IMG/VR virus record: IMGVR_UViG_2537562192_000014
Location: 1-25,514 of that record
Strand: one strand, 5' to 3'
Length of the DNA stretch: 25,514 nt
Origin: a virus
Taxonomy: Duplodnaviria; Heunggongvirae; Uroviricota; Caudoviricetes
How positions within the stretch are numbered: position 1 is the first letter of the stretch; each line of letters opens with the position of its first letter. A program made the position numbers. Below are positions 6,001-9,000 of the stretch, piece by piece.

Positions 6001-9000
6001 CAACATCTTATAGTAAATTGTTAATATAACAAGGTATTGTATCAAATGAGCCAAAATCTTGATTCAACACTAGAAACATACATCTCTTGGCAGTTAGAGC
6101 AATTTAAGGATAAATTTTTCCCAAACTGTGACGTCATTGCGTACTACGGTGGCATCTTTCCATGGTCAAAAGAAGTTTACCAGCCAAAACTTGAAGCTAT
6201 TGGTGAGATGGCTAACAGTCGTACCAATAAATTTCTTGTTATTATACTCAATACAAACGGTGGTTCTGTTGAGTCTGTAGAAAAAATGGTAGAAATTACA
6301 AGGCATTTCTACCAAGAGGTATATTTTATCATTCCAGACATGGCTATGTCGGCAGGTACAATATGGTGCATGTCTGGAGATAAAATTTACATGGACTATG
6401 CTTCTTCATTAGGACCTATTGATCCTCAAGTGCAATCGTCGGACGGTAAATGGGTTCCCGCTTTGGGATACCTTGATAAAGTTGAAGAAATGATTAATAA
6501 ATCCAGAGAAGGAACCATTACCCAAGCTGAACTGATGATGCTTAGTCAGTTAGATCTGGCGCACTTGCGGAGATATGAGCAAGCCAGAGAACTATCAATA
6601 GACTTGCTTAAGAAATGGCTTGTGGAGTATAAATTTAGAGAGTGGACAGTTCATCAAGGTAACACAAAACGAGGAAAGCTAGTTACCAAGAGGGAAAAGG
6701 AAGCGAGGGCTAAAATGATCGCTACCGCTCTTAGTGACAACGGAAAGTGGCATTCTCACGGAAGAACGATAGGAATAAACACTCTTATCAATGACTTAAG
6801 GATAAAAGTAGAAGACTTTACATACGATAAAGATTTTAGCATGGCGTTAAAAAATATACATAACGTCATTAATGAATACATGTATAAAACAAATCGACAG
6901 GTTCTTGTTCTGTCTTCTTTCCCTTTTCCAGAACAAAGTGAGTCATAAATGAACAAAGACAAATCCCTGACACAACAAGTGGAAGAAATACTTAGCAAGC
7001 AAAAAGTTAGCGAGCAAGGAAAAATGATTCAATCATTAAAGAACAGGGGCTTGATCAACAAGCCTGTTTTTACTTTGGCTTATGGACCAGATATTACAAC
7101 CTGCCAAATGCACCAATAACAAAACCCGGCCTTGGTGCCGGGTTTTGTTTGCCTCCTGCTCGCCCCACCATTTACCAGTGCGCCGTAAATTCCCCATTCT
7201 TCGTGGCGGTGAGGATGTCAAAGACGAAGGGAACATTAAGCCCCTGTGTGATGGTTGACTTCTTTTTCCAGCGCCTTATTAACAAAGGCGTTCAGTGATA
7301 AATCTTCTTCCATCGCCATTTCTGCTACCCGACGATGCAGTTCTGGATCAAGCCTGACGTTAAACACACCTTTAAACGGGGTATCAGGCTCCTTTCCATC
7401 CTCCACACAAGACTGTAAATACAGCTCAACCGATGTCTTAAACTCCTGTTCCAGTTCAGCTAATGTAGAAGCCTCATAAGTTACCAGGTCTCGAATAAAC
7501 GCCAGTTTTCCGTACAGGATATTATTTTCAAAATCTGGTTCTACTGTACCTAAATATCCTTTATATTTTAGATGCTTCATAATACCCCAGCCTCTTTCAG
7601 ATTCTGTTTAATCGCTTTCAGCGTTCCACCTTTAATATAACTTTCTGGATGTGGGCGATGCATTAATATGGTGTGGTTGATTTCAGCATTGAAAAACCGC
7701 ACTCTTGAGCCCTGCATTTCCTTTTTGACATATCCCAGAGAGGAAAACAAAACGACCAGCTCATCCCATTCAAACGTTTTTTTACTGTTTAAAAACTTTT
7801 CCAGTAGCTTATCTGCTTTCCCCATACCCACATAATCTCATCTTCGCTACATTGCAACTAATTATAGTTACAGGCAGTGTTTTTGTCAAAAGCCACCAAG
7901 CCCGCTGGGTTCTCTTTGACTGTTCGCTGCTTTTCTTGGTGTTATCAGGGGGCTTTTCCCTCACGCCAAATCTCACATAGAGTAACCGGCCTCCGCGTCG
8001 GTTTTTCTTTGACCGCACTCCGCTAACCGCCCCCTTGAAAAATAAATCACTTTAAAAATCAGTTAAGTAATATTTTTTCACCCCCAATAACCACTAACGG
8101 TATTTACATGAAAATCACCGCAAGTTATATTTATTTCAAGCTAGAAACATCGCGCCCTTACACAGGGCTACATAAATCAGTCGTACGGCGCGACTTAACC
8201 CGCCGCAAAATGCTCTTTAACAATCTGGAGCTTTACAGCGTCAATGACCTGTTTAGACCCCTACACGTAAACGTGCTGTATCATCGGGTGCGATCCGGTC
8301 GATGAGAGAGTATCCCCGCGCGAGAGCGAGAACGGCGTGAGAACGGGCAACACTGGCAGGAAGTTGGCGCTGACCAATACAGGGAATGTTTTGGGGTGCA
8401 GGCGGCACCGCCAAAGCATTTCCGAGAAAGGACGGTATTGACTGCGTGTGATGTCGGGGCTATATTTGGCGAACACCTTATAAAACGGGTGTCGGGATTC
8501 TCACCCCGCTGACAATCGAGGCGATACAGACGCGCCAGCGTCTTTTTTTGTATCAACATACACGCACATCTTATCAATGGTGGGCTGTATGGGGCCGACT
8601 TCGGTCGGGCTGGTTCCCTTGATTGCCAGTTGTGAGAACCCTGTACAGTCCACCGCCAGCGAGCTTCTCACCTCCAGCGGTGGTTATCAATCACCAATCA
8701 AGGAGGCTGCCATCATGGCTACTATCTCTCCCCTTTCTCGCCCATCCGTAACTATTGAAAACGGCAATGCCATCACTACGTCAATTGACATCGCAGAGTT
8801 CTTTGAGAAGCAACATCACCATGTTGTTCAGAAAATAGAATCCCTCGAATGCTCTGAGCAATTCTTAACCCGCAACTTTTCGCGGGTTAAATTTGAACAC
8901 CGAGGCAATACCTATAACGCCTATCAAATCACCAAAAACGGATTCGTCTTCCTGGTGATGGGATTCACTGGTAAAAAAGCCGCTGCATTCAAGGAAGCCT

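Follow-up and report, generated by a model that had tools for sequence, protein, structure and literature searches.

The window analysed here, positions 1 to 25,514 of the IMG/VR virus record IMGVR_UViG_2537562192_000014 (Caudoviricetes; 25,514 nucleotides, nt), corresponds to the immunity region of an Escherichia coli lambdoid prophage and is 100% identical over 1.7 kb to Shiga toxin-producing E. coli (STEC) 2015C-3121 and four further genomes. Directly downstream of a serine protease gene it carries a small open reading frame (ORF) of 56 amino acids (aa; Table 1), which is almost certainly a translated protein-coding gene. Both genes were already annotated and clustered in RefSeq and in PHROGs, with no assigned function. 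What appears to be new, from the comparison of homologous loci, is the recognition of the small ORF as the invariant partner of the protease, the two genes defining a module present in many phyla.

The survey covered 43 loci from IMG/VR with protease homologues at 43–100% identity and 80 loci from one-genome-per-species contigs of many phyla (protease identity 47–67%), to which further loci were added by exact look-up. A homologous ORF of ~49–90 aa is present directly 3′ of the protease gene in all 141 complete loci (protease identity 43–100%), i.e., in 42 of 42 complete IMG/VR loci, in 80 of 80 genome loci and in the look-up loci, so that the conservation on which the first-pass annotation of this DNA had let the case for the ORF depend is observed throughout. 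The hosts include Proteobacteria, Bacteroidota, Acidobacteriota, Gemmatimonadota, Planctomycetota, Spirochaetota and Elusimicrobia. A first mechanical pass detected an ORF near the protease stop codon in most loci, and the apparent exceptions all carry it, either overlapping the 3′ end of the protease gene or beyond the initial search range. An iterated hidden Markov model (HMM) of the small protein picked up a single segment 3′ of the protease gene in each of 130 loci, out of 142, and gave no match to the remaining 537 stop-to-stop segments. The figure of 141 corresponds to these 130 loci plus 11 in which the family motif was recognized by eye, one of the 142 contigs being incomplete and left out. 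A protease without the partner was found in none of the 141 loci.

The substitution pattern is that of a protein-coding gene. For the same genome pairs, with unsaturated synonymous sites, the ratio of non-synonymous to synonymous substitution rates (dN/dS) ranges from 0.06 to 0.33 for the small ORF and from 0.03 to 0.07 for the protease. In pairwise comparisons, the identity of the partners follows that of the proteases (Pearson 0.71), although the small protein diverges much faster, with ~18% identity where the proteases are still ~50% identical. The earlier proposal was that of a stoichiometric partner of the protease, acting as a regulator, a substrate or in an antitoxin-like manner. A dedicated partner is supported by this co-divergence, by the strict co-occurrence (141/141) and by the lack of any other conserved neighbour, and the three roles then listed are those still to be weighed below. 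The same data bear on the possibility that the ORF is untranslated, the region being either the 3′ untranslated region of the protease mRNA with its terminator(s) or a small RNA. A terminator-like hairpin followed by a T-run within the ORF and three sub-threshold Rfam matches around the terminator could be cited in its favour, but the frame is open in 141 of 141 loci despite amino-acid identities down to ~16%, dN/dS is well below 1, the Rfam matches (E = 0.58–0.82) are far below the gathering scores and the internal fold is not significant. This reading appears effectively refuted by the comparative data. The internal hairpin itself (7047–7065, plus strand; GGGCTTGATCAACAAGCCT followed by GTTTTT) covers codons 33–41, in the most conserved part of the peptide; with z = -1.75 it was rejected as an internal terminator or attenuator and treated as a by-product of the coding sequence.

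The first-pass annotation had described a protease stop codon directly abutting the ATG of a 56-aa ORF (TAAATG), with a terminator right after the ORF, and all of this is borne out by the sequence and by the predicted fold. The TAA and the ATG abut without spacer at 6946–6951, and the stop codon of the small ORF (7117–7119) overlaps the foot of the terminator hairpin, whose folding energy is -23.2 kcal/mol (z = -4.05; none of 200 shuffles folds as well). A consensus terminator scan did not pick up this hairpin (7118–7150), because its T-run forms part of the stem. Since an A-tract precedes the hairpin and a T-tract follows it, it could also end the convergent hicBA transcript.

The abutment of stop and start, which had been taken as the telling feature, does not characterize the family. 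Among 130 loci, the distance from stop to start has a median of 10 nt. The genes overlap in 18 loci, only 18 have a gap of 0–3 nt, 122 stay within 40 nt and the others exceed this distance; many loci present a separate Shine-Dalgarno sequence for the partner. The closest relatives (loci L004–L009) have the abutment too (gap 0–1 nt). Operon linkage is the conserved feature, and the exact TAAATG junction and the shared frame belong to the closest clade only. In the window, the two genes are in the same frame (their starts, 6046 and 6949, differ by 903 nt), and readthrough of the TAA would yield a 357-aa protease–partner fusion (6046–7119). Programmed readthrough was rejected: the two genes share a frame in no more than 57 of 130 loci, the gaps are variable and no fused protein was found in a search of 1.84 billion representatives, in which the true matches are all 39–75 aa long. 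The long matches in that search (558–3579 aa, with 4–7 matching stretches) are repetitive charged-helix proteins and not fusions. The partner is always a free-standing small protein across the family.

Homologous cassettes typically end in a strong GC hairpin followed by a T-run, and in 60% of 129 loci the folding energy of the 70 nt 3′ of the cassette is lower than -15 kcal/mol. The surroundings share no further gene: around 76 genome loci, the 142 closest neighbours represent 158 Pfam families, for the most part of housekeeping type, and only a few are helix-turn-helix (HTH), restriction-modification (RM) or Brx/toxin–antitoxin-like (TA-like) genes. Because of this lack of a third conserved gene, the cassette is an autonomous two-gene operon with its terminator.

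Two remote relatives of the protease, in the Shewanella phage vB_SspS_MuM16-1 (26% identity; locus L153, positions 2432–3941) and the Gordonia phage BeeGee (29%; L154, 2309–4037), provide a negative control. They are followed by unrelated hypothetical proteins of 185 and 212 aa, respectively, and the partner HMM gave no signal 3′ of either; therefore, the partner defines this particular protease subfamily. These two phages carry the only protease relatives among 50,697 isolated phage genomes, and no close homologue of either gene of the module was found among these records; weak tblastn matches to phage RNA polymerases (E = 0.07–0.6), obtained with the small ORF, were attributed to chance. The subfamily is large: it comprises 4,446 clusters at 90% identity with E ≤ 1e-10, is ~50% identical across phyla and has a relative in at least 541 of ~185,000 species genomes.

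The small ORF had also been described as unannotated and likely to be missed by standard annotation, which turned out to be incorrect. Of 5,426 complete E. coli genomes, 20 carry the ORF, and in each of them the RefSeq annotation pipeline (PGAP) lists a hypothetical protein for it (WP_167580584.1, WP_021518646.1 or WP_164834428.1); metagenome gene callers annotate its homologues, and the protein matches PHROG 28875 (E = 4.9e-31, 107.6 bits, residues 1–53 on positions 1–53 of the 56-position profile). A literature search with family names, accessions and PHROG identifiers, including full text, returned nothing relevant on either family.

The upstream gene had been called a protease, and the profile and structure comparisons agree. 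The protein corresponds to WP_000081325.1, annotated in RefSeq as 'SDH family Clp fold serine proteinase', and matches phrog_11747 (E = 5.9e-99). Its score against the Pfam family SDH_protease (PF01972) is 44.2 bits, for a cut-off of 31.3, with a match limited to profile positions 92–216 of 286, as for a divergent subfamily. The NCBIfam equivalog Clp_like_SDH (NF047768) was not reached (57 bits for a cut-off of 250), and a weak Pfam match to NfeD1b_N (29.3 bits) is under the 40-bit cut-off. By these profiles, the protein is related, but not equivalent, to the canonical SDH proteinase. The AlphaFold2 (AF2) model has a mean predicted local distance difference test score (pLDDT) of 90.6 and matches SppA, ClpP and 1510-N with a Foldseek probability of 1.00; ranked by fold, Bacillus subtilis SppA comes first in PDB (4kwb/3rst, E ~1e-6), followed by ClpP and by the NfeD protease 1510-N (6m4b). 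In an alignment of 37 diverse homologues, Ser102 (in AMSAGT) is invariant, and D126, K145 and H238 (in WHSHGR) show little or no variation. Such a set is compatible with a Ser-Lys dyad like that of SppA and NfeD, and also with the order Ser-Asp-His described by Pfam for the SDH proteinases. No signal peptide or membrane segment was seen. The protein is best described as a predicted cytoplasmic serine protease of the SppA/ClpP fold.

For the small protein, AF2 run on a 16-sequence alignment of the family gave a single helix at residues 7–32 (pLDDT 70–83; mean over the protein 69.6). In this predicted amphipathic helix the hydrophobic positions at both ends are conserved, and the middle is variable in sequence and length. 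The most conserved segment lies beyond the helix, in a tail with no AF2 secondary structure (pLDDT 44–57). It corresponds to the family motif G-[LIV]-[LIV]-x-[KP]-P-x-[YF]-x-[LI]-[PA]-x-x-[DG]-[TP], in which the G, Y/F and L positions have the highest information content, and which reads G34-LINKPVFTLAYG-P47 in the window. The residue after the conserved [LI] is Pro in 51 of 99 unique sequences and Ala in the enterobacterial clade. As modelled, a helix combined with a conserved extended motif is typical of peptides that adopt their fold against the surface of a partner. The protein has no membrane segments and no Pfam match above cut-off. A PDB profile search with the family returned only designed and pentatricopeptide repeat proteins, with no stretch passing alone, and was discarded as helical-repeat noise. 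An arbitrium-like secreted peptide was likewise rejected: the protein has no signal peptide, and the pair is also found outside phages.

The small protein gave weak matches to the N-terminal domain of ArgR in Pfam (PF01316; 16.8 bits, E = 0.006, profile positions 4–34 of 70) and in NCBIfam (E = 0.0027), which could suggest a DNA-binding regulator of the operon or of the neighbouring immunity genes, acting independently of the protease. Both matches are far under the cut-offs (27 and 194 bits, respectively); they would account for two helices only, the recognition helix and wing being absent, and they lie in the least conserved region of the family. Moreover, the AF2 model has one helix and no helix-turn-helix, and the partner also occurs in non-phage loci with unrelated neighbours. 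We consider such a regulator very unlikely and rejected it.

From the co-occurrence and co-divergence of the two proteins, it is probable that the small protein binds the protease directly. The mechanism that we favour, to which we assign in full a probability of about 35%, is that of an inhibitory pseudo-substrate latch. The N-terminal amphipathic helix would dock on the enzyme, placing the conserved strand P-x-[YF]-x-[LI]-[PA] in the substrate groove beside Ser102, with the alternating aromatic and aliphatic side chains filling the S3 and S1 pockets. The strand would be cleaved poorly or not at all, since most members have Pro at the putative P1′ position (Ala in the enterobacterial clade). 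A bond with Pro at P1′ is generally not cleaved by serine proteases and signal peptidases. The latch would then keep the protease shut until it is displaced or lost, as an antitoxin does with its toxin. In prophages, the position of the operon after a cI-like repressor would make it an accessory module expressed in the lysogen (exclusion, abortive infection or addiction) and not one of virion production; this role is suggested by the repressor-linked slot being that of rexAB in lambda.

The latch has a precedent in the structure of SppA with C-terminal peptides in its active sites. In addition, the small protein evolves faster than the protease, the unit is autonomous and scattered like a toxin–antitoxin module, and the partner is sometimes found alone, the protease never without the partner. 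Several observations weigh against it. The model of the partner is of moderate confidence only (pLDDT 69.6), and the P3, P1 and P1′ positions are putative, assigned by what is generally known of the substrates of serine proteases and signal peptidases. A partner gene placed 3′ of the protease gene and coupled to it tends to at most equal synthesis; classical type II antitoxins are usually encoded upstream and made in excess. With Ala at the putative P1′, the strand of the enterobacterial clade would be cleavable, hence a substrate. The asymmetry between orphan partners and orphan proteases corresponds to ~3 independent events and is not significant given the gene sizes. Finally, a defence role is weakly indicated outside prophages: the flanks are mostly housekeeping with a handful of RM, Brx or TA-like genes, so that guilt by association with defence islands was rejected as too weak across phyla, and neither protein, nor the 53-aa protein encoded upstream, matched a model in PADLOC-DB 2.0 at E ≤ 1. 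In its widest form, the proposal would describe a TA or abortive infection module of many phyla, in which a self-compartmentalising ClpP/SppA-fold protease is shut by a pseudo-substrate peptide, and which lambdoid prophages use from the repressor operon instead of rexAB to exclude other phages; we regard this as speculative and unlikely to hold as a whole.

Two other relationships between the proteins have to be weighed against the latch, both compatible with obligate operon linkage. The small protein could be a dedicated substrate or pro-peptide, cut at the motif (e.g., after L43), the product or its removal being the output. The conserved motif does resemble a recognition or cleavage site, the enterobacterial Ala would permit cleavage, and the fold match to 1510-N together with the weak similarity to NfeD1b_N recalls a protease that cleaves its operon partner, although the latter score does not reach the Pfam cut-off. 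The Pro that follows the conserved [LI] in about half of the unique sequences would generally disfavour cleavage; furthermore, the residues after the motif are few and poorly conserved, with no obvious functional product, and neither a signal peptide nor any other sign of an exported peptide was seen. We hold this to be a minority possibility.

The small protein could also be a non-inhibitory subunit of the protease oligomer, i.e., an adaptor, a specificity factor or an assembly cap. ClpS and SspB are adaptors of Clp proteases, and scaffold proteins play a similar role for S49 prohead proteases. Strict co-occurrence and co-divergence are expected of an obligate cofactor, coupled synthesis 3′ of the protease in a ratio of ~1:1 or less suits a subunit better than an antitoxin, and enzymes of the SppA/ClpP fold (here by fold match and general knowledge) are gated ring or dome oligomers. 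On the other hand, the partner is tiny and lacks an independent fold, its sequence evolves two to three times faster than that of the protease, and in some prophages it persists alone; it shows neither similarity to known adaptors nor a Pfam match above cut-off. We give a subunit of this kind the same weight as a dedicated substrate. The inhibitory latch remains our preferred reading of the pair.

In the window the operon lies in the prophage immunity region, behind a cI/LexA-type repressor (Table 1).

Table 1. Features of the protease–partner operon and of the surrounding immunity region (positions in the window).
Feature	Position	Strand	Remark
cI/LexA-type repressor, HTH_3 + Peptidase_S24 domains	4895-5608	+	
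53-aa protein, RefSeq 'transmembrane anchored protein'	5705-5866	+	between repressor and protease cassette
Left edge of mobile cassette, leader 5′ of protease gene	5958-6045	+	start of cassette homology
Protease gene, 300 aa	6046-6948	+	
Junction: weak Shine-Dalgarno-like GTGAG 6938-6942; protease stop TAA 6946-6948; partner start ATG 6949-6951	6938-6951	+	sequence
Partner gene, 56 aa, MNKDKSLTQQVEEILSKQKVSEQGKMIQSLKNRGLINKPVFTLAYGPDITTCQMHQ	6949-7119	+	WP_167580584.1; PHROG 28875
Predicted amphipathic helix, codons 7-32	6967-7044	+	AF2
Most conserved segment, codons 34-47, GLINKPVFTLAYGP	7048-7089	+	predicted extended/unstructured alone
Intrinsic terminator hairpin, 13 bp, AACAAAACCCGGC-CUUGGU-GCCGGGUUUUGUU	7118-7150	.	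closes operon
hicB/hicA type II toxin-antitoxin pair, convergent	7236-7831	-	

The 53-aa protein encoded between the repressor and the protease starts with a hydrophobic, signal-like segment, ends in a tail rich in Gly and Arg, and matches phrog_14503 (moron membrane protein); a weak hairpin follows its gene (5871–5890, -10.8 kcal/mol, z = -2.5). Since cassettes that are 92% identical lack this gene, it is a separate moron, outside the protease–partner module. The homology to these cassettes of other E. coli prophages (e.g., locus L002) extends from 5958 to ~7155, and a consensus scan for a promoter in the leader gave weak matches only.

In the E. coli LHM10-1 locus (L002, positions 3318–5876), a 92% identical copy of protease, partner and terminator is located between cI and N, and the neighbours form a lambda set with cII, replication genes of the O/P type, ral, cIII, kil, gam and bet. 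The position between cI and N is that of rexAB in lambda, and the presence of this copy there shows that the whole cassette is exchanged in one piece among immunity regions. More generally, in Enterobacterales prophages the cassette is regularly found 3′ of the repressor on the same strand, and in Pasteurella prophages the pair directly follows an S24 repressor, again on the same strand.

A variant without the protease is encoded in E. coli FHI_NMBU_10 (L003, positions 3921–4184) and also in loci L049–L057, where a 98% identical 56-aa ORF directly follows the repressor, the 53-aa membrane protein being absent as well. Homology to the window resumes at 6936, 13 nt 5′ of the ATG, so that the junction segment is retained, and 80 unrelated nt replace positions 5637–6935. 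The variant is present in three complete E. coli genomes and nine IMG/VR contigs with one common junction; because the junction is identical in all carriers, it probably derives from a single event. In two further E. coli genomes, the small ORF is intact next to a damaged protease gene: in CP52E (NZ_CP075731.1) ISEc52 is inserted in this gene, and in UCPROB-002 (NZ_CM142927.1) the protease alignment exceeds the 903-nt query by 1 nt and the annotation has an additional 'hypothetical protein' under the gene, which we read, from alignment length and annotation, as a frameshift. Altogether, 5 of the 20 E. coli genomes that keep the partner have lost the protease by deletion or disruption, in ~3 independent events, a number that is not statistically significant.

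The chromosomal settings are diverse. In Shewanella and in a JGI genome the pair stands alone among housekeeping genes. In a Methylophilus metagenome-assembled genome (MAG; L146, positions 5451–9093) the cassette lies among PIN/MazE, PIN_3 plus small ORF, and Fic genes, and in an Omnitrophota MAG (L147, positions 6173–8112) it follows a pair of Gp49/HigB-like and HTH_37/HTH_3 genes. The immediate neighbour of one cassette in a distant genome encodes a serpin, a serine protease inhibitor (Pfam E = 1e-104).

These results turn an anonymous 'hypothetical protein' into a testable hypothesis, that of a protease with a built-in peptide regulator, and they define a minimal cloning unit of two genes and a terminator. 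In lambdoid prophages the module, which is rare in E. coli (20 of 5,426 genomes), takes up the repressor-linked slot known from exclusion systems, and a new function in lysogenic conversion or defence is therefore a reasonable proposal. Should the pair be one of protease and substrate or adaptor instead, the small protein would still provide a first functional handle on this protease family.

Among known systems, the NfeD protease 1510-N and stomatin, found in archaea and bacteria, likewise combine a ClpP-fold serine protease with a dedicated partner, and the archaeal 1510-N cuts the stomatin encoded in its own operon. However, NfeD and stomatin are membrane proteins and the partner there is an SPFH-domain protein of ~250 aa, whereas the proteins described here have no membrane segments and the partner has 56 aa and no SPFH domain. 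SppA (MEROPS S49) is the best structural match, and in the structure 4kwb its own C-termini occupy the active sites; yet SppA is anchored in the membrane and relies on a Ser-Lys dyad, no separate gene for a small partner accompanies it, and its identity to the protease is ~17%. The CIII protein of lambda (54 aa) is a phage peptide of similar size with an amphipathic helix, which controls FtsH by occupying it, as inhibitor and competing substrate. Unlike the partner described here, CIII is encoded in the pL operon and targets a host protease; in our case the protease is co-encoded, the pair also exists outside phages and no similarity is detectable (no BLASTP alignment at E ≤ 100 with the CIII of locus L002). 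Type II TA modules and two-gene abortive infection modules are also autonomous and horizontally scattered with one small, faster-evolving protein, and the cassette is sometimes found among PIN/MazE, HigBA-like or Fic genes, the small gene being able to persist alone and the large one never; it differs from them in the lack of a known toxin or antitoxin domain, in the downstream position of the small gene and in the lack of an autoregulatory DNA-binding domain. In several lambdoid prophages the cassette occupies the slot of lambda rexAB and other repressor-linked exclusion cassettes, directly after a cI-type repressor, on the same strand and with a terminator at its end, but it has neither homology to RexA or RexB nor a membrane channel component, and it is also found at non-prophage chromosomal sites in many phyla. 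By analogy, the module would work most like the pairs of a protease and a co-encoded peptide or partner, while belonging by sequence to none of these systems.

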